A stretch of 64,000 nucleotides of DNA from Candidatus Cloacimonadales bacterium (GTDB lineage Bacteria; Cloacimonadota; Cloacimonadia; Cloacimonadales; JAIOQZ01). Under the pieces are notes generated by a model. That model did no database searches, was not told the origin of the DNA, and saw only the letters and a program-made list of their open reading frames with translations. Shown in pieces: positions 23,014 to 61,401 of this stretch. The position numbers and the translations under genes were made by a program. The DNA lies in NCBI GenBank assembly GCA_963665815.1, contig OY762463.1:3712001-3776000 (forward strand), in the 5' to 3' direction. The stretch's first letter is position 1; the number at the start of each line of letters is the position of its first letter.

Positions 23014-24588
23014 ATGCTTAGATACACATTTCTAATTTTTTTAGCATGCCTATGTTTTTTATGTTATGCAGAAAATACAATTAACGTTTTGACTTCTATT
23101 ACAACAGATGACCTTTATGGTCTTTTTAACGTCACTCATGGAGACATAAATGGAGACTCAACTCCCGATCTTATAATACTAAGAGGTAGGCAGACATATT
23201 TTGGTTTAGCTCCTATTATTAGTGTTTATCTCGGAGGGGATAATTTTGACTTTACTCCTGTTTTTTCATTTGATACAAGTACGACCTATAACAGTATTAG
23301 TTTAAGTGGAGATATTAACGGAGATGGAGCAAATGATCTGGTTGTTGCCGATAGTGACTTTCCAATAAATGGTATTATGAATGGTAGAGTTCAGGTATAT
23401 TTCGGTGGAGCTGCAATGGATACAATACCTGATTTGACTCTGAACGGTAACGATTATTCAAGTCTTATTGGAGAAAATGAGTTCGGATATGATTTATCTT
23501 TTGAAGATATTAATGTAGATGGCTATGATGACTTAATAGTTTATTCAGGAATGGCAGGAGATAGTTATTCAGGTCAGATTTCCGTTTTTCTGGGTTCGGA
23601 TAATCCTGACACAATTTGTGACTGGAGCAAACAGGGAAATATTAACTCCAAATATGGTCGGGTTAGAGCAATAGGAGACTTAACCGGAGACGGATATCCT
23701 GAAATAATACTGTCACGTTATATACAAACTCAGAATAGTACAGGATTTCATTTTAATCCGGTATATGATGTTTACAGAGGTGGGGTCAATATAGCCAGTA
23801 TTCCTGACACGACAATAGTTTCTCCATATGCTGATCAGTTTCTTACAAATTGTATTTCTGTAGACAAAGATTTAAATAATGATGGTAAAATGGATATTCT
23901 TATTACAAGAGGGAATGAAGATTCTTTGTTCTGTATTTATGGCTCAGATAACCTGAATATGGATTTTACTTTTTTCCAACACCTGAACAATGATGGATCT
24001 GATTTAACATCAATAACATTTGAGGATATTGATTCTAATGGTATTGATGATATTGTTTTTTGCAGAGAATCAGCACCTTATAATGAATATTATACTATAC
24101 ATTGCAATATGGACTGGACGAGTAATCCTGATTTGATATTACCACCGTCATCATTTAATGGCTCTTATGTTTACTATGGTAACTTAGGAGATATAAATAA
24201 TGATGGTTTAAATGATCTGGCAGAAGCAAGAAGAGAAGTTGATGAGAATCTTGAACTCAGGCTGCTGAATTTTATAAGAGAGACACCAATCGATAATGAT
24301 GTCAACCCGTATACAGAACTTGAGTTAAGTAATTACCCTAATCCATTCAATCCTGTTACAACCATAGAATACAGTCTCCCGGAAGAAAGTAATATTTGTA
24401 TTGAAGTATTTAACATAAAAGGACAAAAAGTAAAACAATTAGTTAATGCATACAAAGAAAGCGGACATCACACCATAAAATGGAATGGAACAGACGAAAA
24501 CAATAAGCCGGTTGGTTCCGGAGTATATTTCTATAAGGTCAAAACAGAAAAGTCATCGTTAATAAACAAAATGATAATGTTGAAATAA
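23014..24588 (+). CDS. FG-GAP-repeat secreted protein with FlgD-Ig/Por-type C-terminal domain
   Basis: Repeated GDINGDG..DL motifs; tail NYPNPFNPVTTIEY...WNGTDENNKPVGSGVYFYK...KMIMLK. Confidence 0.9.
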   Translation: MLRYTFLIFLACLCFLCYAENTINVLTSITTDDLYGLFNVTHGDINGDSTPDLIILRGRQTYFGLAPIISVYLGGDNFDFTPVFSFDTSTTYNSISLSGDINGDGANDLVVADSDFPINGIMNGRVQVYFGGAAMDTIPDLTLNGNDYSSLIGENEFGYDLSFEDINVDGYDDLIVYSGMAGDSYSGQISVFLGSDNPDTICDWSKQGNINSKYGRVRAIGDLTGDGYPEIILSRYIQTQNSTGFHFNPVYDVYRGGVNIASIPDTTIVSPYADQFLTNCISVDKDLNNDGKMDILITRGNEDSLFCIYGSDNLNMDFTFFQHLNNDGSDLTSITFEDIDSNGIDDIVFCRESAPYNEYYTIHCNMDWTSNPDLILPPSSFNGSYVYYGNLGDINNDGLNDLAEARREVDENLELRLLNFIRETPIDNDVNPYTELELSNYPNPFNPVTTIEYSLPEESNICIEVFNIKGQKVKQLVNAYKESGHHTIKWNGTDENNKPVGSGVYFYKVKTEKSSLINKMIMLK

Positions 24589-40390: not shown

Positions 40391-42811
40391 ATGAAAGTCA
40401 AAACAGCAGTATTGATAATATTAAGCATTATTTCTTCTCTAACAGCTGTGAGAAGTTGGAATTTATATACAAACACAACTCATATATATGATTTTGAGAA
40501 AATTGGTGATGAAATATATATTGCAACATGGGGTGGTGTTGAAGTTTATAATCTTAAGACAGGAGAACTTACAAACAAATTTGTAAGAGAATCCGGTTTT
40601 GAATCTATGAAAATACATACAATCGAATATTCTGAAACAACCGGAGATATTCTTTTTGGCTCTGACGAAGATGGAGTATTCAGATATAATGACGGGAAAT
40701 TCCTTATCAGTTTAAAGAACGAGAATGGACTCCCTGATAATAACGTAAATGATATGATTATGACAGAAGACCTTATATATGTAGCAACAGACTTAGGGCT
40801 TGCAGTATATGAGAACAAATCAGAATATCCTTTTCCTCTCGTTGAAAACATATTTAACAGTTCAAACGGTATGACTGAAGATATTGTTGAATCAATTGTA
40901 TTGACTGAAGATAACTATCTATTATGCATAAGATCAAGCAGCATAGATTATGTTCATGCTGATTCAATGCTGATTAAAAACAGTTGGCATACTTTAAGAT
41001 CTGAAGATCTTGGTGAGGATGTTACAGATTTGATCTGCTGTAGCGAAAATAATAATCTTGTTGCGTTAAGTGTTAACAATGGACTTCTTATCTGGCCGGA
41101 TTTCCCTGTTGGAATGCCTTATGCCTCAACCGTACCGGATATTGAAAATGGAGCTTATCCCTTATATATTGATGAGGAAAACAACATCTGGACCAGTCTG
41201 GCATATTGGGACATAAATGAAGAAGTCTTTCTGAATGCGGGAACAACTGAGCTTGTTAAAATCAAAAATGACGGTACATATGAAATAACAGATATCCAGA
41301 ACGTAACAGATAAAGCAATAAGTAAGATCACATTAATGGATGACAGATTATATCTTGGTTCCTGGGGGGACGGGATAATTTTTGAAGATACCGATAATGA
41401 ATGGGTGTCAATTAAAACGGAAACAATCTGTACAAATCCTGTAACTGAAATTGAAGCAGATGATAATGGTAGAATATGGGTTTGCAACGGGTTTATTGGG
41501 GTTGATGAAACAAAAAGTGGTGCAAAAGGTGTTTCTGTATTTGATTACTCAACCGATTCCTGGGAAACCTACTCTTATAATAACTCGGATTTAGTCGGCA
41601 ATAACATATTTACATTATGTGCTGCTGATAATCAAATCTGGATGGGAGCGTTTGGATATTACCTCGATGTCGGCTGGTTAAATGGAGTTACTGTTATTCA
41701 GGACGTCTATACTGAGGATGAAGCTTGGTTTAATTTGACTCGCAGCAATGGACTTGCAGGGAATACAATTGGTCATATTTCGGTTAAGAGTGAGGATGAA
41801 ATATGGGTAAGCAGCTACGGAAGTGGTGTGGTTTCGTATAATATATCTTCTGGAGAGACAACAGTTTATTCTGTTCCCGGAAGAAATCAGACTGTTGAAA
41901 TAATGATTCTTGGTGAAGATACAAATGATACGAATGATGATCAGATCTGGTTTGGATCCAAACATGACGGCTTGAAAGTATTGAATGGTTATGGAGTTCC
42001 GGAAAGTTCCACAGATTATCATTGGGAACTGGTTGATGCTCCTGAGCTGAGAGCCAGTTGTGAAATAAACGGATTTGCTCATTACAACAGAGATGGGAAA
42101 GATGACTACTGGATTACATCCAATAAAGGCGTTTTTTTCTACGATAATGTAGATAAAGAATGGCATAAACTTGGTGTTATCTATAAAAGAGAAACCCTGA
42201 TAAATGGAAGATGGCAGATAAAAAGTGATTATGACAAATACTATGTTGACGAAACAAAACTCTATGGTGCTGAGAATGCAACACCTACGTGTATAGAAAT
42301 TGATGCTGATGGAGATGTCTGGATAGGTACTGCTGATTATGGAATTTCTGTCTATAACTATGAAAATGATTCCTATACTCTTTTTGATAAAGATAATACA
42401 CCTCTAATGACAAATTTTATTACAGATCTTGAGTTTGAAGGCCATTCCGGAAGAATGTATATTGGAACTACCGATGGATTGGTTTCTGTTGAAGTTGGTA
42501 AAGATAAGAGGACAGTTGATGATACATCCGATATGATTGTGTATCCAAATCCTTTCTATCCGGATAAAGGTGATGTAGTAAAGATAAGAAACAGCATAGG
42601 TAACGGTTCTATGCCTTCAGATTCGTACATGTGCAGAATTTTTGATGTTTCAGGAAAACTCGTGATTGAAATGGAACAAAATTCACACTATGATTTTGAT
42701 TGGAACGGGAAGAACCTTGCAGGAAAAGACTGCAGTTCAGGAATTTATTACTATGTAGTTTATGATAATGATGGAGATGTGCAAAAAGGTAAAATTGCTC
42801 TCATTCGCTGA
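40391..42811 (+). CDS. PorZ-like two-component-regulator propeller protein with Por-type C-terminal domain
   Basis: Repeated GLP.N.V and IWVGT-type blades; tail VYPNPF...WNGKNLAGKDCSSGIYYY...GKIALIR. Confidence 0.75.
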   Translation: MKVKTAVLIILSIISSLTAVRSWNLYTNTTHIYDFEKIGDEIYIATWGGVEVYNLKTGELTNKFVRESGFESMKIHTIEYSETTGDILFGSDEDGVFRYNDGKFLISLKNENGLPDNNVNDMIMTEDLIYVATDLGLAVYENKSEYPFPLVENIFNSSNGMTEDIVESIVLTEDNYLLCIRSSSIDYVHADSMLIKNSWHTLRSEDLGEDVTDLICCSENNNLVALSVNNGLLIWPDFPVGMPYASTVPDIENGAYPLYIDEENNIWTSLAYWDINEEVFLNAGTTELVKIKNDGTYEITDIQNVTDKAISKITLMDDRLYLGSWGDGIIFEDTDNEWVSIKTETICTNPVTEIEADDNGRIWVCNGFIGVDETKSGAKGVSVFDYSTDSWETYSYNNSDLVGNNIFTLCAADNQIWMGAFGYYLDVGWLNGVTVIQDVYTEDEAWFNLTRSNGLAGNTIGHISVKSEDEIWVSSYGSGVVSYNISSGETTVYSVPGRNQTVEIMILGEDTNDTNDDQIWFGSKHDGLKVLNGYGVPESSTDYHWELVDAPELRASCEINGFAHYNRDGKDDYWITSNKGVFFYDNVDKEWHKLGVIYKRETLINGRWQIKSDYDKYYVDETKLYGAENATPTCIEIDADGDVWIGTADYGISVYNYENDSYTLFDKDNTPLMTNFITDLEFEGHSGRMYIGTTDGLVSVEVGKDKRTVDDTSDMIVYPNPFYPDKGDVVKIRNSIGNGSMPSDSYMCRIFDVSGKLVIEMEQNSHYDFDWNGKNLAGKDCSSGIYYYVVYDNDGDVQKGKIALIR

Positions 42812-48145: not shown

Positions 48146-48209
48146 AGAAAAAAGACACAGAACAAAGGGCAAGGAAGCCCGGAAAAAACAATCATCAAGG
48201 AGGATGAAC

Positions 48210-49172
48210 ATGTCACTCTTTATTAACAACAACCAGTATGCATTAAATGCATCAAACAACTTAAGATCTCATTACGCTAACATGGGTAAGTCAATTGAAA
48301 GACTTACAACAGGTTTGAGAATTAACTCAGCAAGAGACGATGCTGCCGGAATGGCTGTCAGAGAAGAAATGAGATCTGACATTGCAACTTACAATCAAGG
48401 CATCAGAAATGCAGAAATGGCAATTAACATGCTTCAGACTGCAGAAAGCTCAATGGCAATCATCGATGAAAAGCTCATGAGAATGAAACAACTTGCAGAA
48501 CAAGCTGCAACCGGAACTTACACACATGAGCAAAGACAGATTATTCACTCAGAATTTGCTGCAATGGCTGCCGAAATTGACCGTATCGCTGAATCAACCG
48601 AGTTTGGCGGAAGAAAACTTCTCAACGGTGACTTATCTACAGATGCTCACAACAACATAACTGTTGGTGGATGGCTTCAATCAGGTCCTGCTACATTAAC
48701 AGCAGACAATTATGACAGTGATGGCGAATATCGTCACAATGTTGGTGTAAAAGTTCACTTTGGTCTCACAAACAATCGTCTTGAAGACTATTACTTCATT
48801 AACATTGGAGATATGACAACAAACGGACTGTTTGAGAAGGTTGGAAACGAAACAGATACAGCAGCAAGCAAAATTTCTGTATCAACTCAGCACGTAGCTC
48901 AGATTGCACTTGAGCAACTTGATTCAGCTATTCTTGAGAAAGAACACCAGAGAGCTCACCTTGGTTCAATGATGGTAAGGCTTGAAAACACAATAGCTCA
49001 CCTTCAGTCACAATCAGAAAACCTTCAGGCTGCGGAATCACAGATTTCAGATGTTGATGTAGCATCAGAAATGACAGAATTCGTAAAAAGTCAGGTTTTA
49101 ACACAGGCTGCAGTTGGAATGCTTGCTCAAGCTAATTCTCTTCCACAAATGGCTCTCCAGTTACTTGGATAA
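48210..49172 (+). CDS. fliC: Flagellin 1 (most divergent copy)
   Basis: RLTTGLRINSARDDAAG...ISDVDVASEM...QANSLPQ; start 48210 fits SD AGGAGG spacing. Confidence 0.95.
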   Translation: MSLFINNNQYALNASNNLRSHYANMGKSIERLTTGLRINSARDDAAGMAVREEMRSDIATYNQGIRNAEMAINMLQTAESSMAIIDEKLMRMKQLAEQAATGTYTHEQRQIIHSEFAAMAAEIDRIAESTEFGGRKLLNGDLSTDAHNNITVGGWLQSGPATLTADNYDSDGEYRHNVGVKVHFGLTNNRLEDYYFINIGDMTTNGLFEKVGNETDTAASKISVSTQHVAQIALEQLDSAILEKEHQRAHLGSMMVRLENTIAHLQSQSENLQAAESQISDVDVASEMTEFVKSQVLTQAAVGMLAQANSLPQMALQLLG

Positions 49173-49375
49173 TAAAAGAAAGATATAATCTCAAAAACAA
49201 GCTTCAGATAAAAAGAAATAATTACGAATAGAAAACAGATTTTTGACAAGAAAATAGATGTGATGTGATAGATGTGTTACCTGGCACAAATATCAAAACG
49301 CACTCATAGCAGAAGCTAAATTATGAGTAACTCGTTCCCAACACAAGGATGATTCACTCATCAAGGAGGAAAAAG

Positions 49376-50335
49376 ATGTCACTCGTAATTAACCATAATC
49401 TGATGGCTATGAACACAGCAAGAAACCTGACTTCGGCATATGGAAGATTAGGTAATTCAGTAGAAAGACTTTCAACAGGATTGAGAGTAAATTCAGCTGC
49501 AGACGATGCAGCCGGACTCGCAATTCGTGAGAGCATGAGAGCAGAAATTGCTTCTCTTAATCAAGGTGTCCGTAATGCACAGGATGGTATCTCAATGATC
49601 CAGACAGCAGAAGGTGCAATGGCGGTAATTGATGAAAAACTGATTCGTATGAAAGAGCTTGCAGAACAGGCTGCTACAGGAACATATACTAACGATCAAA
49701 GAATGATTATTCATTCTGAGTTCGCAGCAATGGCTTCTGAAATCGATAGAATCGCAACAGCGACAGATTTCAATGGAGTTCATCTGCTTGACGGTAATGT
49801 GTCAATGGCAGGAACAAATGGTCAATGGACCTCAACAAACAACTGGACTGCAACAGAAGGTCTCTGGACAAATAGTTCCGGATGGCAGGAAGTTAATGGT
49901 ACTGCTGCTGCAAACGGAGATGTTACCGGTGGTGTAAAAATCCACTTTGGCTCCGGAAACAGCAGAGCAGAAGACTATTACTTCTTCAGAATCGGTGATA
50001 TGAGAACTTCATCTCTCGGAGTAGGTTCCGAAGATGTTGCTGTAAGTACACAGCACTCTGCACAGCTCGCACTTGAAAGAATAAACACAGCTATCATCAG
50101 GAAAGAAAATGCGCGTGCTCAACTTGGAGCTATTCAAAACAGACTTGAAAACACGATAACTAATATCTCAATTCAGGCTGAGAATATCCAGGCATCTGAG
50201 TCACGTATTTCCGACGTTGATGTAGCTCAAGAAATGACTGAATTTACCCGTAATCAAATCCTTACACAGTCCGCAGTAGGTATGCTTGCACAAGCAAATT
50301 CATTACCTCAGATGGCACTAAGATTGATCGGTTAA
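49376..50335 (+). CDS. fliC: Flagellin 2
   Basis: MSLVINHN...RLSTGLRVNSAADDAAG...SRISDVDVA; start after AGGAGG. Confidence 0.97.
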   Translation: MSLVINHNLMAMNTARNLTSAYGRLGNSVERLSTGLRVNSAADDAAGLAIRESMRAEIASLNQGVRNAQDGISMIQTAEGAMAVIDEKLIRMKELAEQAATGTYTNDQRMIIHSEFAAMASEIDRIATATDFNGVHLLDGNVSMAGTNGQWTSTNNWTATEGLWTNSSGWQEVNGTAAANGDVTGGVKIHFGSGNSRAEDYYFFRIGDMRTSSLGVGSEDVAVSTQHSAQLALERINTAIIRKENARAQLGAIQNRLENTITNISIQAENIQASESRISDVDVAQEMTEFTRNQILTQSAVGMLAQANSLPQMALRLIG

Positions 50336-50467
50336 CTATTGAGTGGATTATTTTCTCATAGATTGGTTTGGTTAAGCCTAGAAATGTCAGCAGATATGCC
50401 ATAATCGTATGAGACATTTGTCTTATACAGTATCATGGAAGTACATTCAACCAATCAAGGAGGAAAG

Positions 50468-51427
50468 ATGTCACTCGTAATAAATCATAACCTGATGGCG
50501 ATGAATACAGCCAGAAATCTTACAACATCCTACGGTAACTTGAGTACATCCGTTCAAAGACTTTCAACAGGACTGCGTATTAATTCAGCAGCAGATGATG
50601 CTGCAGGATTGGCAATCCGTGAAGGTATGAGAGCTGAAATAGCTGCTATTAATCAAGGAGTTAGAAATGCTCAGGATGGTATCTCAATGATCCAGACAGC
50701 TGAAGGTGGTATGGCGGTAATTGACGAAAAGTTAATTCGTATGAAAGAATTGGCAGAACAGGCAGCTACCGGTACATATACAAACGAACAAAGAATGATT
50801 ATTCATTCTGAATTCTCAGCAATGGCCGCAGAAATCGATAGAATCGCAACAGCGACCGATTTCAATGGAATTCACTTATTAAACGGTAACGTTTCAATAG
50901 CTGGATCTAACGGTCAATGGACATCTTCAAATACATGGACAGCAACTGAAGGCTTGCATACAAACAGTAGTGGATGGCAAGAAACTAATGGAACAGCAGC
51001 AGCAAATGGAGACATCACAGGTGGAGCTAAGATTCACTTTGGACCTGCCAATGACAGGGCTGAAGATTATTACTTCATCAGAATCGGTGATGTTCGAACA
51101 AGCGCATTAGGTATCGGAGCATCTGAGGTAGCTGTAAGTACTCAGCACTCAGCTCAGCTTGCTCTCGAAAAACTAAACACAGCAATGGTCCGTAAGGAAA
51201 ATGCTCGTGCTGCACTTGGTGCTGTCCAGAATCGTCTGGAAAACACCATTACAAACTTATCCATCCAAGCTGAAAATGTTCAGGCTGCAGAATCGAGAAT
51301 TTCTGATGTTGACGTAGCACAAGAAATGACCGAGTTCACAAGAAATCAGATACTGACACAATCCGCAGTAGGTATGTTAGCGCAAGCTAATTCATTACCA
51401 CAAATGGCACTCAGACTTATAGGTTAG
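50468..51427 (+). CDS. fliC: Flagellin 3
   Basis: Flagellin N- and C-terminal domains; start after AGGAGG. Confidence 0.97.
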   Translation: MSLVINHNLMAMNTARNLTTSYGNLSTSVQRLSTGLRINSAADDAAGLAIREGMRAEIAAINQGVRNAQDGISMIQTAEGGMAVIDEKLIRMKELAEQAATGTYTNEQRMIIHSEFSAMAAEIDRIATATDFNGIHLLNGNVSIAGSNGQWTSSNTWTATEGLHTNSSGWQETNGTAAANGDITGGAKIHFGPANDRAEDYYFIRIGDVRTSALGIGASEVAVSTQHSAQLALEKLNTAMVRKENARAALGAVQNRLENTITNLSIQAENVQAAESRISDVDVAQEMTEFTRNQILTQSAVGMLAQANSLPQMALRLIG

Positions 51428-51510
51428 ATTGAGAGGCTTCTTTCCATAATTCGAGATTGGTTTGGTTCCCCGGCAAACAGCAGAATGTCGGCTGTATAAG
51501 ACTAATGTCT

Positions 51511-51550
51511 TATATTAGCAAGGATGACTAATATACCAATCAAGGAGGAA
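51511..51550 (+). promoter_or_regulatory. CsrA-type binding sites in the flagellin 4 leader (equivalents at 48167-48180, 49344-49351, 50434-50441)
   Basis: TATATTAG-CAAGGATGA-CTAATATA hairpin with GGA in the loop, plus CAAGGAGG over the SD. Confidence 0.65.
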
Positions 51551-51552
51551 AG

Positions 51553-52512
51553 ATGTCACTCGTAATAAACCATAATTTGATGGCGTCGAATACTGCAAGA
51601 AATCTTACTGATTCTTACGGTCGTCTCGGCACGTCAGTGATGAGATTGTCTACAGGGCTACGTATCAATTCAGCAGCGGACGACGCTGCAGGTCTCGCAA
51701 TACGTGAAGGAATGAGAGCTGAAGTTGCATCATTGAATCAGGGAGTTAGAAATGCCCACGATGGTATTTCCATGATTCAAACAGCAGAAGGTGCAATGGC
51801 AGTTATCGATGAAAAACTTATACGTATGAAAGAGTTAGCAGAGCAAGCCGCTACCGGAACGTATACTAACGAGCAACGCTTGATTATACATTCCGAGTTT
51901 TCAGCAATGGCAGCTGAAATTGATAGAATAGCCACAGCCACAGATTTCAACGGGGTTAAGCTTCTGAATGGAAATGTCTCTATAGCCGGATCCGGTGGTT
52001 CCTGGTCTTCAACGAATACCTGGAGCGCTACAGAAGGCTTATGGACAAACAGTAGTGGTTGGCAGGAAGTTTCTGGTTCTGCCGATGCAAACGGTAATGT
52101 TACCGGTGGTGCAAAAATTCACTTCGGACCTGCTAATGACAGGGCTGAAGATTACTACTTTGTACGTATAGGTGATGTGCGAACAAGTGCTTTGGGAATT
52201 GGCTCAGCTGATGTTGCAGTCAGTACTCAGGATGCTGCACAGGCTGCTCTCGAGAAAATCAATACGGCTATGATTCGTAAAGAGAACGCTCGGGCTGCAC
52301 TCGGTGCTGTTCAAAACCGATTGGAGAACACAATAACTAACTTGTCAATTCAAGCTGAGAATATTCAGTCAGCAGAATCTCGTGTCTCAGATGTGGACGT
52401 AGCTCTGGAAATGACAGAATTTGTGAGAAATCAAATTCTAACACAGGCTGCAGTCGGAATGCTTGCACAAGCTAATTCGTTGCCTCAAATGGCTTTGCGT
52501 CTGATAGGATAA
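51553..52512 (+). CDS. fliC: Flagellin 4
   Basis: Flagellin N- and C-terminal domains; start after AGGAGG. Confidence 0.97.
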   Translation: MSLVINHNLMASNTARNLTDSYGRLGTSVMRLSTGLRINSAADDAAGLAIREGMRAEVASLNQGVRNAHDGISMIQTAEGAMAVIDEKLIRMKELAEQAATGTYTNEQRLIIHSEFSAMAAEIDRIATATDFNGVKLLNGNVSIAGSGGSWSSTNTWSATEGLWTNSSGWQEVSGSADANGNVTGGAKIHFGPANDRAEDYYFVRIGDVRTSALGIGSADVAVSTQDAAQAALEKINTAMIRKENARAALGAVQNRLENTITNLSIQAENIQSAESRVSDVDVALEMTEFVRNQILTQAAVGMLAQANSLPQMALRLIG

Positions 52513-52928: not shown

Positions 52929-53817
52929 CTTCGATCTCTTTGATTTCTTTATATGAAAAGCTGCCTTTTGGAGCATTACGTATTGTTCTTATCAGTGATT
53001 TGTTTTTAGATTTAAAAAAATTAGGTTTTCTAATATTGAATATTTTTAATCTGTTCAATTTATTTATTTTGAAACCTATGCATAGAAAAAAAACATCTTT
53101 GTTCTCGTCAACACAGAATAAGGTCATTAAATATCCGGATTCATTGATTCTGATTCCCCAGTCTCTTATTGAATGTATACTGAATTCAGGCATATTCTCC
53201 AATTTGAAATCCTGAAAATAACTTTTTAATGATATAAGATTATTTTCTCCGGTTTTCTTTATGAGAAGCTTAATAAAGTTACCCACATTTTCATATTGCT
53301 GATAAGTAAGAATATTCTTTGTCCAGGTTAAACCTTGTTCTTTCAGTATTGCAGCTTTCAAATTTCTCCTCATCCTTTGAACATATTTCTGAGCAGTTTT
53401 CAGCTTTATATCATTTTTTTTTGCAATTTCAGCAGAACTAAGTTGTTTAACGAAATAGTATTTATATATTTTTAAATCCAGTTTACTAAGGTGTTGCCTA
53501 AGTACTTCAAAAGGAATATCATCCTTATGTTTTTCAATTTCCTCATCATATGAAGGAATCTCATAGTTCACTTGTTCCTTAAGTGCTTCAAGTGATCTTA
53601 CTCTTTCACGTTTTTTTAATACATTTAGAGACATGTTATAGGCTACTTTGTACAACCAGCTCTTAGGGTGTTTTATCTCCTGTTCCTGAATGTAAAACTT
53701 ATAAAAGGCGTTCTGAACAATATCTTCTGCATCATCCGTATTTGAAGTTATACTGTATGCATAGTTAAAAATCTGGTATCTCAACTGAGCAAACAGTTGA
53801 TCAGTTATTTTTGTCAT
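52909..53817 (-). CDS. ECF-type sigma-70 factor with a ~150-aa C-terminal extension
   Basis: Region 2 DAEDIVQNAF...SWLYKVAYN; region 4 LSSAEIAKKNDIKLKTAQKYVQRMR; overlaps the selA 3' end by 17 nt. Confidence 0.85.
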   Translation of the reverse strand: MTKITDQLFAQLRYQIFNYAYSITSNTDDAEDIVQNAFYKFYIQEQEIKHPKSWLYKVAYNMSLNVLKKRERVRSLEALKEQVNYEIPSYDEEIEKHKDDIPFEVLRQHLSKLDLKIYKYYFVKQLSSAEIAKKNDIKLKTAQKYVQRMRRNLKAAILKEQGLTWTKNILTYQQYENVGNFIKLLIKKTGENNLISLKSYFQDFKLENMPEFSIHSIRDWGIRINESGYLMTLFCVDENKDVFFLCIGFKINKLNRLKIFNIRKPNFFKSKNKSLIRTIRNAPKGSFSYKEIKEIEEKKRLQ

Positions 53818-55192
53818 ACAGGGAAACCTTCAGGATCCGGGCAACAGAATCAGCAATGTACTGAAAATCTTTTGTATCTATACACAGAACATCAATAAGA
53901 ATAGTTCCTTCTCTTAACACACTCAGAATCGGCTTTTGTAGTTTCAGAAGGTCAAAAAAAAGTGAGTCTGTCTGTCTTGTATTTATATTGAGTTTCACAG
54001 CATAGCTGTTTCTCTTAAAATCAGGTAATGTACCACCACCACATCGTCCGTAGCTTTCTGTTACATCAGAATTTACATTCTCTCCCCTAAGAGTATTTTT
54101 CAAGTTTTCAGCTTTTAACTTCACATCATCATCAGCAAGATTGAGGAGTTTGAATAAGGGCGTATTTTCCATAAGCCTTTCTTCAGAGAAATAATTGGAT
54201 ATAACAGAAATTAACGAGCTGATTGTCAGCTTACCAATTCTATAAGTACGCATAAGCTGGGAGGAGTGAATTTTTTTAACACACTCTGATTTACCTGAGA
54301 TTATGCCAGCCTGTGGTCCACCAAGCAGCTTATCACAACTGAATGTAACAATATCTGCTCCGGCATCAATACAACTTTTTACGTCAGGTTCCTCCAGAGG
54401 AAGAGATTCCGGTTTTCTGAGTAATCCTGAACCAATATCATAGATGACAGGAATGTTGTGTTTTTTGCCAAGCTTAATCAGTTCTTTAAGCTCAACATCA
54501 CTTGTAAAACCGGTTATATGGTAATTAGACTGATGCACTTTAATTATTGCTCCGGTATTCTCGTTGATTGCATTTTCGTAATCCTTGAGATGAGTTCTAT
54601 TAGTAGTGCCTATTTCAACCATTTCAGCACCACTGAGTTTCATTATCTCCGGAATACGGAAAGAACCGCCTATTTCCACGAGTTCACCACGAGACACAAT
54701 CACTTCTTTGTCTTTTGCCAGAGTGTTAAGAGTAAGGAATACAGCTGCAGCATTGTTGTTGACTGCTATGGAATCTTCTGCACCGGTAACATATTTCAGT
54801 ATAGCTTTCAAATGATAGTTACGGTTACCGCGACGACCTTTATCCAGATCAAATTCCAGATTTGAGTAACCGGATACTCTTTCTGCCAGATCATTAATCA
54901 CATTAGGTCCTAAAGGTGATCTGCCAAGATTTGTATGAATGATGATTCCTGATCCGTTAATAACAGGTTTTAATCCGGGTTCGGACAGCTTCTTGATGAA
55001 ATCATAAACGGAATCGATCCAGAACTGTTCGTTAGCATCAGGAATATTGTCTTTCAGCAGCTTATTTTTTTCCAGCTTTATTGCTTCTCTGGCACAATAG
55101 ACTAAAAAGGAATGATCGAAAGTGGATTTGAATTCTGCAAACATGTCATCTTGCAGGAGTTTTTCTATACTTGGAATATTAAGTGCATTCAT
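53801..55192 (-). CDS. selA: L-seryl-tRNA(Sec) selenium transferase
   Basis: VINGSGIIIHTNLGRS, YSNLEFDL, VNNNAAA, SRGELVEIGGSFRIP, FSCDKLLGGPQAG. True start is ATG 55192; the longer ORF in the track runs through the tRNA. Confidence 0.96.
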   Translation of the reverse strand: MNALNIPSIEKLLQDDMFAEFKSTFDHSFLVYCAREAIKLEKNKLLKDNIPDANEQFWIDSVYDFIKKLSEPGLKPVINGSGIIIHTNLGRSPLGPNVINDLAERVSGYSNLEFDLDKGRRGNRNYHLKAILKYVTGAEDSIAVNNNAAAVFLTLNTLAKDKEVIVSRGELVEIGGSFRIPEIMKLSGAEMVEIGTTNRTHLKDYENAINENTGAIIKVHQSNYHITGFTSDVELKELIKLGKKHNIPVIYDIGSGLLRKPESLPLEEPDVKSCIDAGADIVTFSCDKLLGGPQAGIISGKSECVKKIHSSQLMRTYRIGKLTISSLISVISNYFSEERLMENTPLFKLLNLADDDVKLKAENLKNTLRGENVNSDVTESYGRCGGGTLPDFKRNSYAVKLNINTRQTDSLFFDLLKLQKPILSVLREGTILIDVLCIDTKDFQYIADSVARILKVSLYDKNN

Positions 55193-55206: not shown

Positions 55207-55301
55207 TGGCCGCGAGGGCAGGAATCGAACCTGCCACAGACGGTGTTATCCGCCTGCTACTGATTTTGCAGACCAGTTGGACCACCAGATCCGTCCTCGC
55301 T
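55207..55301 (-). tRNA. selC: tRNA-Sec-type tRNA with a GCA (Cys) anticodon
   Basis: (A)GCGAGG AC GGAUC-UGGU-GGUCC A ACUGGU-CU GCA AA-AUCAGU A GCAGGCGG-AUAACA-CCGUCUGU G GCAGG-UUCGAUU-CCUGC CCUCGCG G CCA. Extended D stem with 4-nt loop, 6-bp anticodon stem, long variable arm, G73, encoded CCA; anticodon at 55267-55269; ends 14 nt before selA. Confidence 0.9.
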
Positions 55302-55340: not shown

Positions 55341-58040
55341 CTAATAATTATTGGCAATCAATTTTTTAACTTGTACGGCTGTAACTTTGTATTCAGGGAT
55401 TTTTGCGACTGGATCAATTTCTTTGTGGGTAAGTCGGTTCGCAGGACTTTCATGGAAATGAAAAGAAATGAAAACCACACCTTTTTTTATTCTATCAGTA
55501 ACTTCAGCTGCAATTGTAATTTCGCCTCTTGCTGATGAAACGGAAACGAATTCGCCATTATCAATACTTCTTTGAGCTGCGTCAAATGGAGATATTTTTA
55601 TTGTTGGAGGTGATAACCGATCGAACTCTTCACTTTTCCTTATCATTGTCCCTGTATGGAATTGATGCGCCAGACGTCCGGTAGTAAGAATCAGTGGGTA
55701 TTCACGGCTGCAAATTTCATAAGGTGGAACATAGTCCACGATTTTAAACTTTGGAAGTCCAATTGGAAAGCTATTTTCGTGAAGAATACTTGTACCAGGG
55801 TGTTCAATATCCGGGCATGGCCACTGAATTCCGTCTTCTTCGGTTCTATCAGATGTAATACCTCTATAGAATGGGATAGTCTCGTTGATTTCTCTGGTAA
55901 TATCCTCAGAATTCGAGTATTCCCAGTTATAACCCATTGCATTAGCGAGGTCAGTAACAATCTTCCAGTCATTTTCAACTAATCCAGGAGCATCAGTTGC
56001 TTTTCTCAGCTTCTGCACTCTACGCTCTGTGTTTGTGAAATGTCCTGTCTTTTCAGAGAAACAGGCTGCCGGTAGAACAATGTCAGCCATTTCAGCAGTT
56101 TCGGTCATGAATATATCCTGAACAATCAGCAAATCAAGGTTTTTAAGAGCTTTAATAGTGTGGGTCTGGTCCGGATCACTCAATACAGGATTTTCTCCCA
56201 TAACGTATATAGCTTTAATATCTCCAGATATGGCACTGTCCAGCATTTCTGTGATCGTTAATCCCGACTTATTGCTAATGTCAGATTTCCAGTAATCTGC
56301 GAATCTTTCTATAGCTTCAGGATTGGATACTTTTGCATAGCCCGGAAGAGTATCCGGAAGACAACCAACATCACAAGCACCCTGTACATTGGATTGTCCC
56401 CTGAGTGGATTGACTCCAGCTCCGGGAATACCAATGTTCCCACACATTAACTGTAGATTTGCCAGAGCGAGTACATTCTGGTATCCAGATGTGTGCTGCG
56501 TTATGCCCATTGCAAAATAAACAGCAGCGGTTTTTGCTTTTCCGAACAGTTCTCCAATCTCGTAAAGTGTTGAAGCTTTAATACCTGCTATCTCTTCAAT
56601 CGTTTCAGGTGCATACTTTGTCATAAGCATCTCATTTTTAAAGAGAGTCCATGAGTCCAAGTCAGTACGAGACTTAATATACTCTGGATCGAACAGGTTC
56701 TTTTTAATAATGACATGTATGATTGAGTTAATCAAAGCAGTATCTGATCCCGGTTTCTGGGATGCATAGATTGAAGCAAATTTTGCCAATTCAATTTTTT
56801 TGGGATCAATTACAATAAGCTTGGTGTTATGAAACTTAACAGCCTGCTTGATTTTGTTTCCAATTATTGGATGAGCGGCTGTTGTGTCAGAACCAATTAC
56901 AAGGATTGCATCAGCTTTATGGATATCCTGTAAATTGTTCGTCATTGCACCACTTCCAAGAGATTCTGCAAGACCTGCAACTGTTGACGCATGACATAAT
57001 CTTGCACAATGATCAACATTATTATTACCTATGCAAGTCCGAAAAAATTTCTGGAAAAGATAATTATCTTCGTTTGAACACTTTGCTGAAGAAAAACCTC
57101 CGATAGCATTACTGCCGTTTTCATTAATAATCTTTTGGAATTTATCAGCAATGATTTCGATTACAGTATTCCAGTCTGTCGGAACATGTTTTCCATTTTG
57201 TTTTATAAGTGGAGTTGTCAAACGTCTGTCAGAATGAACAAATCTGAATCCGAATCTGCCTTTACTGCATAGCATACCGTTATTGACTTCAGAATCCTCA
57301 ACTCCCCTAATGCGAATGATCTCACCGGTTTTCTTGAGTGTATGAATTTCAATGTTGCATCCCACTCCACAATATGTGCAGATGGATCTGATTTTATCAA
57401 TCTCTCTGTCTCGATATGCTCTTTTAGAGTTTTTGTCGTAAATTGCTCCTACAGGACAAAGCTGAGAGCATTCTCCACATTGAACACAACTTGATTCACC
57501 GAGTTTTTTATTGTAGTCTATGGTAATTCTTGTATTTCCACCTCTGTCAGCGAAGTTGATTACTTCGTTAACAACAGTATTGTTACAACCGCTTACACAA
57601 TTCCCACAACTGATGCATTTATCAATGTCTTTTACGATGAACTCAGATGATGTGTCAGGTTTATTAAGTCTTTCACCAATAACATAATCATCCATCTCTG
57701 AATAGAATACTGCATCCTGTAATGCACAATGAAGGTTTGCCGGACAGTTTAGACAGCTATGATTACCTGATTCAAGAATAAGTTTAAGGATCATGGTAAC
57801 TGTATGTCTAACCATTTTGGACTTGGTTCTTACTTCCATGTTCGGTGAGACTGGAGTGGAACATGCAGGTACGAGCCTATTGGCAACTTCAACAAGACAG
57901 ACGCGGCAGTTACCGCAAATTCCTGTTTTAGGGTGATAACACAAGTGAGGAATATACATATTGTTCCTCATGGCGCATTGCAGAATTGTCTCGTTTTCTT
58001 TTGCCTGCAGAACCTGATTGTTAATTTTTATGGAAAACAT
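55341..58040 (-). CDS. fdhF: Formate dehydrogenase alpha subunit (Mo/W-bisPGD) with an N-terminal NuoG/HydA-like FeS module
   Basis: 2Fe-2S, HxCxxC and 2x4Fe-4S motifs; CTYCGVGC; DHCARLCHAST; PLRGQSNVQGACD; KIPEYK. Confidence 0.95.
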   Translation of the reverse strand: MFSIKINNQVLQAKENETILQCAMRNNMYIPHLCYHPKTGICGNCRVCLVEVANRLVPACSTPVSPNMEVRTKSKMVRHTVTMILKLILESGNHSCLNCPANLHCALQDAVFYSEMDDYVIGERLNKPDTSSEFIVKDIDKCISCGNCVSGCNNTVVNEVINFADRGGNTRITIDYNKKLGESSCVQCGECSQLCPVGAIYDKNSKRAYRDREIDKIRSICTYCGVGCNIEIHTLKKTGEIIRIRGVEDSEVNNGMLCSKGRFGFRFVHSDRRLTTPLIKQNGKHVPTDWNTVIEIIADKFQKIINENGSNAIGGFSSAKCSNEDNYLFQKFFRTCIGNNNVDHCARLCHASTVAGLAESLGSGAMTNNLQDIHKADAILVIGSDTTAAHPIIGNKIKQAVKFHNTKLIVIDPKKIELAKFASIYASQKPGSDTALINSIIHVIIKKNLFDPEYIKSRTDLDSWTLFKNEMLMTKYAPETIEEIAGIKASTLYEIGELFGKAKTAAVYFAMGITQHTSGYQNVLALANLQLMCGNIGIPGAGVNPLRGQSNVQGACDVGCLPDTLPGYAKVSNPEAIERFADYWKSDISNKSGLTITEMLDSAISGDIKAIYVMGENPVLSDPDQTHTIKALKNLDLLIVQDIFMTETAEMADIVLPAACFSEKTGHFTNTERRVQKLRKATDAPGLVENDWKIVTDLANAMGYNWEYSNSEDITREINETIPFYRGITSDRTEEDGIQWPCPDIEHPGTSILHENSFPIGLPKFKIVDYVPPYEICSREYPLILTTGRLAHQFHTGTMIRKSEEFDRLSPPTIKISPFDAAQRSIDNGEFVSVSSARGEITIAAEVTDRIKKGVVFISFHFHESPANRLTHKEIDPVAKIPEYKVTAVQVKKLIANNY
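56967..56996 (-). promoter_or_regulatory. SECIS-like hairpin downstream of the active-site UGU codon
   Basis: UGU CAU GCG UCA ACA GU UGCA-GGUCU-UGCA; compare E. coli fdhF UGA CAC GGC CCA UCG GU UGCA-GGUC-UGCA. Confidence 0.55.
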
Positions 58041-58100: not shown

Positions 58101-59954
58101 TTAATCTTGCTCTGCAGCTTCAGCTTGAGCTTTTCTGAATTGAATGATTTCTTCTCGCATTCCGGCGTTCTTATTAACAGCATTAACTGGACATACATCC
58201 ACGCAGTTTCCACATTTAACACAATCAATTTGTTTGATAGTGTATTTTTCTTCTCTGGAACCGGAGATACAGTTTGTCGGGCAGTTTTTAGCACAAAGTG
58301 AACAGCCGATACATTTATCTTTGTCTATATCAAAGTTGATGAGATCAAGACAAACAAGTGTTGAACATTTATTTTCTTTGATATGTTCTTCGTATTCATG
58401 TCTGAAGTATCTTATTGTACTTAAAACAGGATTTGGTGCAGTTTGACCAAGACCACAGAGTGATGTTTGTTTTATAACATTACCAAGCTCAATAAGTCTT
58501 TCGATGTCACCTTCTTTACCTCTACCTGATGTAATGTTATTCAAGATTTCGTGCATATGTTTAAGACCTATTCTACATGGTGTACATTTACCGCATGATT
58601 CTTCAACTGAGAATTCCAGGAAGAATTTGGCAACGTTAACCATACAGTTACTGTCGTCCATAACAATAACACCACCGGAACCCATCATCGCACCTTTTTC
58701 AAGGAGTGACTGATAGTCTATCTGAACGTCAAGGTGATCGTTTGTGAGGCATCCGCCTGAAGGTCCGCCAAGTTGAACAGCTTTAAATGCTTTTCCATTA
58801 GGAATTCCACCACCAACTTCAAAAATAAGTTCTTTAAGACTGATTCCCATTGGAACTTCAACAAGACCGGTATTTTTAACATCACCTGTAAGAGCGAATA
58901 CTTTTGTACCTTTACTTGTTTCAGTACCCATTTGAGAGAACCATTCAGCACCTTTTGTGAATATTGTAGGAAGATTAGCATATGTTTCAACATTGTTAAC
59001 TGCTGTTGGTTTTCCCCAGAGTCCTTCTACTGATGGATATGGTGGTTTTACGGATGGTTGACCTCTTTTACCTTCGATAGAAGCGATAAGAGCTGTTTCT
59101 TCTCCACAGACGAAAGCACCGGCACCGGTTCGTACTTCAGCTTTGAAAGAGAAGTCTGAACCGAAGATGTTATCACCGAGGATACCGAGTTCAAGTGCCT
59201 GACTTATAGCTTGTCTGATACGTTTTATTGCAAGCGGGTATTCAGCTCTGATGTAGAAATATCCTTCGGAAGCTCCGATACAGTATGCAGCAATTGCCAT
59301 ACCTTCAAGTACTCGATGAGGATCTCCTTCAAGGAGTGATCTGTCCATGAATGCTCCAGGGTCACCTTCGTCACCATTACAGATAACGTATTTCTGATCT
59401 GCAACAGGTTTTCTTGTGAGTTCCCATTTCAACGCAGTAGGGAAGCCACCGCCACCACGACCACGTAGTCCTGATTCTTTCACAACACTGATACCATCTT
59501 CTGGTGACAGTTGTGTAACGAGCTTACCAAGAGCTTCGTAACCTCCGAGAGCGATATATTCTTCAATACTTTCAGGATCAAGGTGTCCGCAGTTTTCCAG
59601 AGCAACTTTAACCTGTTTCTTATAGAAAGGAATTTCTTTCTGGTCTACAATAACTTTATTTTCATCTTCTTTAAGCATAAGACGTTGAACCGGACGACCT
59701 TTTATAAAGTGTTCCATTACCATTTCTTCAACATCTTCTACGGTAACTTTCTGATAAAATGTGCCATCAGGATAAATCTTGATAACAGGACCGTAGTCAC
59801 AAGGTCCCATACAGCCTGTTTCAATAATGTTTATTTCATTAAGAATATCATTGGCTTCAAGAACCTGAATCATTTTTTCTTTAATCTTAAGTGCTCCTGC
59901 GGAAACACAACCTGAACCGCAGCATATTAGAACATCAATTCTTTTAACTGGCAT
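58101..59954 (-). CDS. nuoF: NADH/FMN-binding NuoF/HydB-type subunit
   Basis: N-terminal 2Fe-2S; SGLRGRGGGGFP; NGDEGDPGAFMDRS; GGPSGG; SCGKCTPCRIG; C-terminal 2x4Fe-4S. Confidence 0.93.
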   Translation of the reverse strand: MPVKRIDVLICCGSGCVSAGALKIKEKMIQVLEANDILNEINIIETGCMGPCDYGPVIKIYPDGTFYQKVTVEDVEEMVMEHFIKGRPVQRLMLKEDENKVIVDQKEIPFYKKQVKVALENCGHLDPESIEEYIALGGYEALGKLVTQLSPEDGISVVKESGLRGRGGGGFPTALKWELTRKPVADQKYVICNGDEGDPGAFMDRSLLEGDPHRVLEGMAIAAYCIGASEGYFYIRAEYPLAIKRIRQAISQALELGILGDNIFGSDFSFKAEVRTGAGAFVCGEETALIASIEGKRGQPSVKPPYPSVEGLWGKPTAVNNVETYANLPTIFTKGAEWFSQMGTETSKGTKVFALTGDVKNTGLVEVPMGISLKELIFEVGGGIPNGKAFKAVQLGGPSGGCLTNDHLDVQIDYQSLLEKGAMMGSGGVIVMDDSNCMVNVAKFFLEFSVEESCGKCTPCRIGLKHMHEILNNITSGRGKEGDIERLIELGNVIKQTSLCGLGQTAPNPVLSTIRYFRHEYEEHIKENKCSTLVCLDLINFDIDKDKCIGCSLCAKNCPTNCISGSREEKYTIKQIDCVKCGNCVDVCPVNAVNKNAGMREEIIQFRKAQAEAAEQD

Positions 59955-59969: not shown

Positions 59970-60338
59970 TTACTTGCTCTCGGTTGAGATTACATAGTCT
60001 TCACAAACAAAACCGTTAATAATATGACTTTCAACAACTTTGACAGCTTTTTCAGAATCCATTTTTCCATAAGTTATTGTTGGCTTTCCTTCTTCAATAA
60101 TATCAACAACAGGCTCCATGGAAGATAAGCCTTTTTCACCTGTTTGAGTAACAAGTACATCAGTGAGATTATGTCTTGTAATTTCGTTGAGGAAAGTTTT
60201 CATAACATCTCTGGCTCCCATAGCAATTCCGGATGTTCCCATTCCAACAACAATTTTGATTCTATGATCTGAACTTCGGAGCTTCATTTCATTCTGTGCT
60301 TTTTCTCTGATTTTTCTCAATTCTTCCAAAGTTTTCAT
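59970..60338 (-). CDS. HydD-like thioredoxin-type ferredoxin subunit lacking its usual Cys ligands
   Basis: KTLEELRKIREKA, VGMGTSGIAMGAR, QTGEKGLSSMEP, VESHIING. Confidence 0.8.
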   Translation of the reverse strand: MKTLEELRKIREKAQNEMKLRSSDHRIKIVVGMGTSGIAMGARDVMKTFLNEITRHNLTDVLVTQTGEKGLSSMEPVVDIIEEGKPTITYGKMDSEKAVKVVESHIINGFVCEDYVISTESK

Positions 60339-60907
60339 TAGATTTCCTCCAGTTTTGTCATTTTCAATCCTTCAAGTAATGTCTCTTCAATAAAAGATAT
60401 CACATCAGGATATGTAATCGGTATACCACCGAGTTCTTCCTTTATCTCTTTTGTTTTCAATTCAAATACTTTTTTACCTGAAAATCCGATTCTCTCATAA
60501 TAAATATCAAAGTCTGCTTCAGAATGACCGATTATTGCCCCAAGCAAAGTATCTGTTATGTTTCCGAGAGGCATACGATCAATACTATCAAGTTGGAAAA
60601 CAGCTTTAAGTTTAGTGCCTTCACCCGGTTTGCTGTAAACATCAAAACTGCCATTGCAGTTTTCAGCATTCTGCTTGAGTAAAGGTACGCCTAAGCCAAT
60701 CTTCTTTTGTCTTTCGACTTTGGTTGTGTAAAACGGATTTACAACATGTTCCAGAACTTCTTCGTCCATTCCGGTTCCATCATCTTCAACTCCGATCGTA
60801 ATAGTGTTGCGTCTAATGTCAGCTTTAATGGACACCTTGACACAAGTTGCTTTTGCTCGTACAGAGTTTTCTATCAGATCGAGAATATGAAGTGATAAAT
60901 CCTGCAT
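60338..60907 (-). CDS. Histidine-kinase-like ATPase of hyd-type operons
   Basis: LSLHILDLIENS, DDGTGM, PFYTTK, GLGVPLL, IDRMPLG. Confidence 0.88.
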   Translation of the reverse strand: MQDLSLHILDLIENSVRAKATCVKVSIKADIRRNTITIGVEDDGTGMDEEVLEHVVNPFYTTKVERQKKIGLGVPLLKQNAENCNGSFDVYSKPGEGTKLKAVFQLDSIDRMPLGNITDTLLGAIIGHSEADFDIYYERIGFSGKKVFELKTKEIKEELGGIPITYPDVISFIEETLLEGLKMTKLEEI

Positions 60908-61401
60908 TAAACAGAAGTCTCTTTAATTTTACTGATTATTTCTTTGATCTGTTTTTTAGTTTCAATTCTTCCAAAAGTATCTTCACCAATTACAAATACA
61001 GGTGCAAGAGAGCATGCTCCAACACAACGTACTGATGTAAGTGTGAACATATTGTCTTCGGTAGTTTCTCCGAGTTTTACATTAAGTTCATCGCTAAGCA
61101 TCTGGATAAGGCGTTCTGCACCTTTAACATAGCAGGCTGTACCTGTACATACATTAATGATGTGTTTTCCTCTTGGTTTCATTGAAAAGAAGTTATAGAA
61201 TGTGACAACACCATAAATTTGATTTATTGGTATACCTGTTTTATCTGCGATAAATTCCTGAACTTCCATTGGTAAATAACCAAATATCTCCTGAGCTTTA
61301 TGAAGAATTTCAATAAGCGGATTTCTGATCTTCATTTTTTCTTCGATTACTGCTTCAAGTTTCTTATAAAGCAAGTTATCTGTTGATTGACTATGTGTCA
61401 T
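60907..61401 (-). CDS. nuoE: NuoE/HydC-type 2Fe-2S subunit
   Basis: YGVVTFYNFF, CTGTAC, CVGACSLAP. Confidence 0.92.
   Translation of the reverse strand: MTHSQSTDNLLYKKLEAVIEEKMKIRNPLIEILHKAQEIFGYLPMEVQEFIADKTGIPINQIYGVVTFYNFFSMKPRGKHIINVCTGTACYVKGAERLIQMLSDELNVKLGETTEDNMFTLTSVRCVGACSLAPVFVIGEDTFGRIETKKQIKEIISKIKETSV

Follow-up and report, generated by a model that had tools for sequence, protein, structure and literature searches.

We analysed a 64,000-nucleotide stretch of the genome of a Candidatus Cloacimonadales bacterium (assembly GCA_963665815.1, contig OY762463.1, positions 3,712,001 to 3,776,000), referred to here as the window, with coordinates counted from its first letter. It encodes a formate dehydrogenase (FDH) alpha subunit, FdhA, in which the position occupied by selenocysteine (Sec) in selenium FDHs is specified by UGU, an ordinary cysteine (Cys) codon. 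Based on the sequence and its comparison with relatives, UGU349 of FdhA is likely a programmed Sec site, read by a tRNASec-like tRNA with anticodon GCA whose gene lies just behind fdhA. The codon is followed by a hairpin that resembles a selenocysteine insertion sequence (SECIS), and in related genomes codon and anticodon change together in both fdhA and selD. The elements of sense-codon recoding to Sec, namely a tRNASec with a matching anticodon, a gene bearing a SECIS-like element, and selA, selB, and selD, are all present in this genome. The features at the center of the analysis are the following.

55341..58040, minus strand: fdhA, an open reading frame of 899 amino acids (aa) for the alpha subunit of formate dehydrogenase, extended N-terminally by an Fe-S (NuoG-like) region
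56994..56996, minus strand: UGU codon of FdhA residue 349, at the Sec (UGA) position of selenium FDHs, from sequence and alignment
56965..56981, minus strand: SECIS-like hairpin GUUGCA-GGUCU-UGCAGA, with 5′ arm 56980-56976, loop 56975-56971, and 3′ arm 56970-56966
55207..55301, minus strand: selC-like tRNA of 95 nucleotides (nt), anticodon GCA at 55269-55267, from ARAGORN, Rfam RF01852, and the consensus fold of relatives
53801..55192, minus strand: selA, L-seryl-tRNA(Sec) selenium transferase (TIGR00474, 521.6 bits versus 268; Pfam SelA, 425 bits)

The catalytic codon of fdhA and its hairpin

FdhA is a member of TIGR01591 (Fdh-alpha), as its whole-protein score of 793.6 bits exceeds the curated cut-off of 666.25 and the match spans profile positions 2-672 of 672. 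A PF00384 search of its own genome returned fdhA and one weak match of 27.6 bits, and fdhA is the sole FDH-type molybdopterin enzyme of the genome. Residue 349 lies in the context VDHCARL-C-HASTVAGLAES, and the peptide spanning it reads CARL(C/U)HASTVAGLAESLGSGAMTNNLQDIHK. Its codon, TGT at 56996..56994, is followed by CAT GCG TCA ACA GTT GCA GGT CTT GCA GAA. The first-pass annotation had placed a TGT at the Sec position of this gene and, behind it, a hairpin with its loop G 18 nt downstream, in the register of Escherichia coli fdhF. Both observations were borne out. The TGT is read on the minus strand within the 899-aa fdhA, and it aligns with TGA in the orthologs of two relatives (G011 and G035), in 36 homologs from other phyla among the matches listed, and in E. 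coli K-12 fdhF, where the aligned codon is TGA140.

The hairpin occupies bases +15 to +31 after TGT and consists of five contiguous pairs (U.G, U-A, G-C, C-G, and A-U) round a GGUCU loop. Eleven bases, GTTGCAGGTCT, are shared exactly by the window fdhA and E. coli K-12 fdhF in the same register after TGT or TGA. Bacterial SECIS elements are stem-loops that directly follow the recoded codon, and their apical loop is separated from that codon by 16-37 nt (PMC10778597). The window hairpin falls within this range, with 18 nt between UGU and the first loop G. Its GGUCU loop is of the SECIS kind and also occurs in 29 of the 36 TGA-bearing homologs from other phyla (among the matches listed).

A selC-like tRNA with anticodon GCA

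The gene for the 95-nt tRNA begins 40 nt past the fdhA stop. ARAGORN labels it tRNA-Cys(GCA); against the tRNA-Sec model RF01852 it scores 52.8 bits (gathering score 47) and is the only match over the cut-off in the genome. Its discriminator is G73 and its CCA is encoded (3′ end ...CCUCGCG-G-CCA). The variable arm is long, with a stem of 6-7 base pairs (bp), the anticodon stem has 6 bp, the D loop 4 nt, and the acceptor/T domain 12 bp. Both serine-identity features, G73 and the long variable arm, are therefore present; in the same genome, tRNACys has U73 and the tRNASer species have G73. Two features of a classical tRNASec are absent. The anticodon is GCA instead of UCA, and the acceptor/T domain is not of the 13-bp (8/5) form, since six pairs, a 1:72 position that is mostly non-Watson-Crick, and a 5-bp T stem add up to 12 bp.

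The genome is a single contig of 3.96 Mb with 36% G+C, is 98.7% complete, and encodes 41 tRNAs, none of which has the anticodon UCA. Two have GCA, an ordinary 74-nt tRNACys and the 95-nt tRNA of the window. The likely start of selA is the ATG at 55192-55190, 14 nt past the CCA of the tRNA. Together with selB (305 bits; 650 aa that include SelB beta-barrel and SelB-wing_3 domains) and selD (394 bits), selA and the tRNA form an intact set. No selenouridine synthase was found in the genome, which leaves SelD without that alternative use. GrdA and GrdB were not found in the genome, but both searches also matched in no control genome.

In relatives, 50 selC-like tRNAs were typed in 46 of 61 genomes. 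Half of them (25) have GCA and half (25) UCA, and they are distributed over 21 GCA-only genomes, 21 UCA-only genomes, and 4 genomes with both; the sub-threshold Rfam tRNA-Sec matches in these relatives are tRNA-Ser or tRNA-Trp. The consensus fold of the 50 tRNAs shows that the two classes share one body, with a 6-bp anticodon stem, a 4-nt D loop, a long variable arm, and a 5-bp T stem. G73 is found in 50/50 aligned tRNAs and an encoded CCA in 49/50, and position 1:72 is C.A in 24, A.G in 18, A.A in 3, and Watson-Crick in 5. A wider class-level sample of 151 genomes added 34 tRNASec in 33 genomes, all with UCA and the same body. The 12-bp acceptor/T domain is common to all 84 tRNASec typed in the class, UCA or GCA. 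As UCA is the majority state, the GCA tRNAs (25/84 genes) appear to be a derived subset.

The four genomes in which UCA and GCA tRNASec occur together are G003 (L063/L078), G006 (L050/L080), G007 (L041/L079), and G015 (L040/L083). In the tRNA tree, the two tRNASec of each fall into separate lineages and did not arise by recent duplication. G015 combines a selD with TGA and an fdhA with TGC and the hairpin; two Sec codes would then coexist within one cell. Separately, in G000, G001 (L021), and G017 (L027), which represent two families, fdhA is followed directly by the GCA tRNA gene. The fdhA-tRNA cassette may be mobile, because the G000 tRNA groups with family f11 and not with the other f1 tRNAs, although a tRNA tree of about 90 columns and an FdhA tree built with FastTree only do not support firm claims on origin or transfer.

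Codon and anticodon change together in fdhA and selD

Orthologs of fdhA were found in 20 of the 61 relatives, and the site is readable in 19. TGA is present in two (G011 and G035), both from UCA-only genomes. The other 17 have TGY (5 TGT and 12 TGC), and all 17 come from genomes with a GCA tRNA (16 GCA-only and one with both). Internal stops suspected in several of these orthologs were discarded, as the TAA and TAG codons are the genes' own terminal stops.

A second candidate site lies in selD.

C1:3915859-3916785, outside the window, plus strand: selD, with TGC at the catalytic Sec/Cys position (L009:1531)

Twelve nt past this TGC is the 7-bp hairpin UUAGGGC-CGUGC-GCCUUAA, written in rare codons (L009:1543-1561), with P = 0.007 under codon usage. 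Its position equals that in the TGA versions of the gene. The TGY selD genes of G001, G004, G017, G025, and G039 retain the hairpin with A-U exchanged for G-C, and the same sequence pattern recurs in the second selD copy of G003 and of each of G005-G007. A selD with TGA occurs in 19 genomes, all of which have a UCA tRNA. A selD with TGY occurs in 26, of which 20 are GCA-only, three have both tRNAs, one is UCA-only (G043), and two, G033 and G055, yielded no tRNA (91% and 64% complete, respectively). In GCA-only genomes, TGA was found at the site in 0/16 fdhA and 0/20 selD. fdhA and selD are independent genes, and in both the codon co-varies with the anticodon; since the genomes are kin, however, fewer independent events lie behind these matches than the counts suggest. 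The TGC of selD is probably a second UGY/Sec site.

Conservation of the hairpin across homologs

We scored the 17-nt hairpin segment in 69 homologs, 19 from the order and 50 distant. The distant out-group was drawn from 80 homologs among the matches listed (36-50% identity); 30 without the active-site pattern were dropped and 50 scored. A hairpin was counted as present when it had at least five contiguous pairs and a GGUCU loop, and the minimum free energy (MFE) was computed on a 21-nt segment. The four groups gave the following results.

TGY, this order: hairpin in 15/17, median MFE -9.2 kcal/mol
TGA, this order: hairpin in 2/2, median MFE -11.6 kcal/mol
TGA, other phyla (among the matches listed): hairpin in 26/36, median MFE -11.1 kcal/mol
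TGY, other phyla (among the matches listed): hairpin in 0/14, median MFE -3.8 kcal/mol

None of the 14 distant TGY genomes has a GCA tRNASec-like gene. Seven have a UCA tRNASec, six have tRNA-Ser/Leu-type matches only or none, and one has an untyped match at a contig end.

Synonymous constraint was measured on 16 TGY orthologs, leaving aside both TGA genes and L038, which is divergent, in 128 blocks of five invariant columns, each column at least four-fold degenerate. The codons V354-A358 have a mean codon entropy of 0.595 bits, the lowest of the 128, against a gene mean of 1.62, and this in families whose FdhA proteins are only about 53% identical. Compared with the order consensus GUGGCC..GGCUGC, both sides of two pairs have changed in the genus of the window (C-G to A-U and G.U to U-A). 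In alignment A4, 92.7% of the cells pair and three pairs show double changes. The covariation score is 0.303 versus 0.137 when shuffled, a value matched by 0/500 shuffles, and slid controls reach at most 0.15. The A-U closing pair of the window is also present in true TGA genes (L103 and L125).

Entropy, covariation, and the contrast between 15/17 and 0/14 indicate a structure kept beyond coding constraint. The first-pass annotation had proposed that UGU and its hairpin are the recoding target of the GCA selC-like tRNA and had named conservation of the hairpin relative to Cys-type FDHs as a test. The hairpin passed it, being kept in 15/17 TGY genes from genomes with a GCA tRNA versus 0/14 Cys-FDHs elsewhere. 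The proposal itself is supported by this result, by the co-variation in fdhA and selD, and by the G73 of the tRNA.

Proposed mechanism and points against it

We propose that seryl-tRNA synthetase would charge the selC-like tRNA, with its G73 and long variable arm, and that SelA would turn the serine into Sec with selenophosphate supplied by SelD. SelB would then bind both Sec-tRNASec(GCA) and the GUUGCA-GGUCU-UGCAG hairpin 3′ of the codon and bring the tRNA to UGU through a G34-U wobble. Since UGU is also an ordinary Cys codon, elongation factor Tu (EF-Tu) with Cys-tRNACys could read the site as well, and would do so when Sec-tRNA is scarce. The predicted outcome is a mixture of Sec and Cys forms set by selenium supply, without truncation, and thus a fail-safe enzyme.

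Several observations weigh against a Sec site at UGU349. The hairpin in the window is the weakest of the hairpin-bearing set, at -3.3 kcal/mol compared with -7.0 in a congener and about -9 kcal/mol in the order. Its z-score is -0.45, 62 of 200 shuffled sequences fold equally well, its outermost pair is broken (G/A), and it is missing from the MFE structure of the 47-nt context. The thermodynamics of the window hairpin, judged by the z-score and the 47-nt fold, were dropped as support. When synonymous codons were enumerated under the genome's codon usage, at least five contiguous pairs with a GGUCU loop arose with P = 0.050, and the peptide VAGLAE fixes three of the five pairs. The caution of the first-pass annotation, that VAGL imposes a coding constraint and that the lower stem is weak, was right. 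Rfam SECIS_3 (RF01989) matches 56999..56941 on the minus strand with 28.6 bits (E = 0.0066) and does not reach the gathering score of 63; we treat the match as a lead only, because it is sub-threshold and the model also covers conserved coding sequence. By itself, the window hairpin barely exceeds chance, and the signal beyond chance comes from the relatives and the neighboring genes.

The comparative evidence has weak points as well. Two TGY orthologs in genomes with a GCA tRNA have a hairpin that is broken (G051) or absent (G022). Many GCA genomes have a selD of 'GGCSAKLSP' type in which no hairpin follows TGY, so TGY in a GCA genome is not by itself diagnostic of Sec. The relatives are not independent, and the 17/17 and 19/19 matches could rest on few evolutionary events; the tRNA tree suggests only two to four GCA lineages, and both it and the FdhA tree are low in resolution. 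The selenoprotein gene searches in this genome covered FDH, SelD, and GrdA/B. Finally, the GCA tRNA may be cysteinylated in part, since GCA is an identity element of cysteinyl-tRNA synthetase (CysRS).

Alternative explanations

The weakness of the hairpin would be explained if it were a relic SECIS in a plain Cys-type FDH. An ancestral UGA/Sec codon would then have changed to UGU, leaving a hairpin retained in part through the coding constraint of VAGL and an enzyme with Cys only; other targets would account for the sel genes and the GCA tRNA, or these would be in decay. Cys-type FDHs are common, at 14/50 distant homologs among the matches listed, and decay of the hairpin is seen in the orthologs of G051 and G022; the window hairpin itself has P = 0.05 by codon usage, with 3/5 pairs fixed by the peptide. 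Nevertheless, we consider a relic unlikely. It should decay as in the distant Cys-FDHs, 0/14 of which keep it, yet the stretch is the most synonymously constrained of the gene, and the changes in the genus of the window are compensatory. Moreover, selA, selB, selD, and the tRNA are intact, with the tRNA and selA directly behind fdhA, and no other FDH, GrdA/B, or selenouridine synthase was found in the genome that would justify keeping the sel genes.

The identity of residue 73 bears on another explanation, in which the gene would encode a Cys tRNA in selC clothing, similar to selC*/tRNAReC. Such a tRNA would be charged by CysRS via the anticodon GCA and taken to UGU with its Cys by SelB or EF-Tu, with no selenium involved at the site. 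Cys-carrying tRNASec-like tRNAs exist (selC*/tRNAReC; PMC5389517, PMC13582414), U73 and GCA matter most among the CysRS identity elements (PMC5389517), and ARAGORN calls the gene tRNA-Cys. However, U73, which defines selC*/tRNAReC (PMC5389517, PMC13582414), is missing from the tRNA of the window, and all 25 GCA tRNAs have G73, like the 25 UCA tRNASec and tRNASer. The selC*/tRNAReC genes also accompany a canonical tRNASec (PMC5389517), whereas this complete genome, whose sel system is itself complete, yielded no UCA tRNASec. The genome contains a single cysS and no selB paralog. Nothing would be gained by bringing Cys to a Cys codon, and the selA gene beside the tRNA would be left unexplained. 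We consider this explanation quite improbable.

As Vargas-Rodriguez et al. reportedly found in 2018, a tRNASec with anticodon GCA can recode UGA. It is very improbable that the GCA tRNASec acts on UGA elsewhere, through a wobble G-A mismatch in SECIS context and with the fdhA UGU not a target; both anticodon types of tRNAReC mediate UGA recoding (PMC13582414), but TGA, present in UCA genomes, occurs in 0/16 fdhA and 0/20 selD of GCA-only genomes (the two classic genes examined), and the tRNA is co-located with a TGT-bearing fdhA in G000, G001, and G017. A Sec site at UGU349 remains the reading that we favor.

Comparison with known systems

The finding extends a known phenomenon, as recoding of UGU and UGC to Sec has already been described. 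The breadth across the order, the co-switch of selD, and the co-existence of UCA and GCA tRNASec in four genomes may be new. In 2016, Mukai reportedly confirmed UGU recoding in Aeromonas salmonicida experimentally, by labelling or mass spectrometry. Some bacteria use UGU or UGC with anticodon variants of tRNASec (PMC8124441, PMC10778597, PMC10573291). These include A. salmonicida, in which UGU is recoded to Sec (PMC10778597), and a small Aeromonas group with a tRNASec of anticodon ACA and a 12-bp acceptor domain (PMC10573291). The locus of the window resembles the A. salmonicida FDH of the Mukai 2016 type in its sense Cys codon at the FDH Sec position, the retained SECIS, the matched anticodon of tRNASec, and the complete selA/B/D set, and it has the same 12-bp tRNASec acceptor domain as in Aeromonas (PMC10573291). 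It differs in the anticodon, which is ACA in the Aeromonas group (PMC10573291) and GCA here, where UGU would be read by wobble and UGC by Watson-Crick pairing. Unlike in Aeromonas, the trait spans many families of one order (25/79 tRNASec-bearing genomes typed), selD is also affected, and GCA occurs beside UCA tRNASec in four genomes.

The FdhA of Aeromonas sobria (loci L100 and L222 for this species), with TGT at the site and a degenerate hairpin, nests within the FdhA clade of this order in the FastTree phylogeny, and the UCA tRNASec of A. sobria shares the T arm of the order. These two observations hint that the Aeromonas Sec/FDH system was transferred from this lineage. The fdhA-selC(GCA)(-selA) cassette may move between lineages and is a possible source of the Aeromonas system.

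The SECIS of E. coli fdhF has a GGUC loop and a bulged U. The window hairpin differs in its 5-nt loop (GGUCU) with a U-A continuation of the stem. With fdhF UGA140 and its SECIS, the window fdhA shares the position in the enzyme, the register of the hairpin, and the 11 identical bases GUUGCAGGUCU. The codon is UGU and not UGA, the competitor would be Cys-tRNACys, and the tRNA has GCA and a 12-bp instead of a 13-bp acceptor domain. With UGU in place of UGA, there would be no competition from release factor 2 and no truncation.

The tRNA of the window resembles selC*/tRNAReC in its tRNASec-like body, its GCA anticodon, and its designation as tRNA-Cys by tRNA finders. It differs in having G73 and not U73, in the absence of a canonical tRNASec and of selB* or cysS* paralogs from what was found in the genome, and in its proposed cargo and target, Sec instead of Cys and UGU instead of UGA. 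Like the Cys-type NAD-linked FDH alpha subunits, the window FdhA has a Cys codon at the catalytic position, belongs to the same family, and carries the same VAGL motif. Unlike the Cys-type FDHs of other phyla, which lost the hairpin (0/14 among the matches listed), the window fdhA has one.

A blastn search of E. coli genomes with the site returned, instead of fdhF, 18 plasmids that carry an fdnGHI operon whose fdnG matches it. The fdnG that was aligned, from plasmid NZ_CP012499.1 (21659-24709, L236), carries TGT where Sec would be and lacks a GGUCU hairpin, as a Cys-type FDH-N. A 2026 review of prokaryotic selenoproteomes (PMC13188914) gave no match in a text search for 'sense codon' and 'Cys codon'.

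Genomic neighborhood

Upstream of fdhA, four further genes lie on the same strand.

58101..59954, minus strand: NuoF-like flavoprotein/Fe-S subunit, just upstream of fdhA (TIGR01959, 494 bits, below the cut-off of 559)
59970-60338, minus strand: 2Fe-2S ferredoxin-like protein (NCBIfam)
60338-60907, minus strand: protein with a histidine-kinase-type ATPase domain (NCBIfam)
60907-61401, minus strand: NuoE/HoxE-like protein (NCBIfam)

The NuoF-like protein is presumed to be the electron-transfer partner of FdhA. From their spacing, the three small genes at 59970..61401 on the minus strand may form one operon with the fdhA cluster. The protein encoded at 60338-60907 has 189 aa and consists of the ATPase domain alone; within the FDH electron-transfer cluster, its gene is flanked by the NuoE-like and the 2Fe-2S gene. 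Elsewhere in the window, four tandem flagellin genes of 319-330 aa occupy 48204-52512 on the plus strand, and a protein with a C-terminal sorting domain of the type IX secretion system (T9SS; 23014-24588) and a PorZ-like propeller protein (40391-42811) are also encoded. Flagella together with T9SS are an unusual combination.

Implications

It is possible that much of a bacterial order uses a second, hidden Sec code (UGY plus SECIS) served by a distinct lineage of tRNASec(GCA), and that at least fdhA and selD have switched with it; we regard the case for this broader proposal as evenly balanced. The locus of the window is a compact and tractable natural system, with a closed genome, one FDH, and its own tRNASec(GCA) and selA behind fdhA. 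It makes the competition between SelB/SECIS and EF-Tu/Cys-tRNACys testable at one sense codon, as well as the dependence of the Sec:Cys ratio on selenium. It also offers natural parts for Sec insertion independent of stop codons, namely a 12-bp tRNASec, SelA, SelB, and a short in-frame SECIS.

If UGU does encode Sec here, annotation and surveys restricted to in-frame UGA overlook these selenoproteins. Should the code extend across the order, such proteins would be annotated as Cys proteins and would escape UGA-based selenoproteome surveys, and each site, through the shared codon, would act as a selenium-titrated switch between Sec and Cys without truncation.

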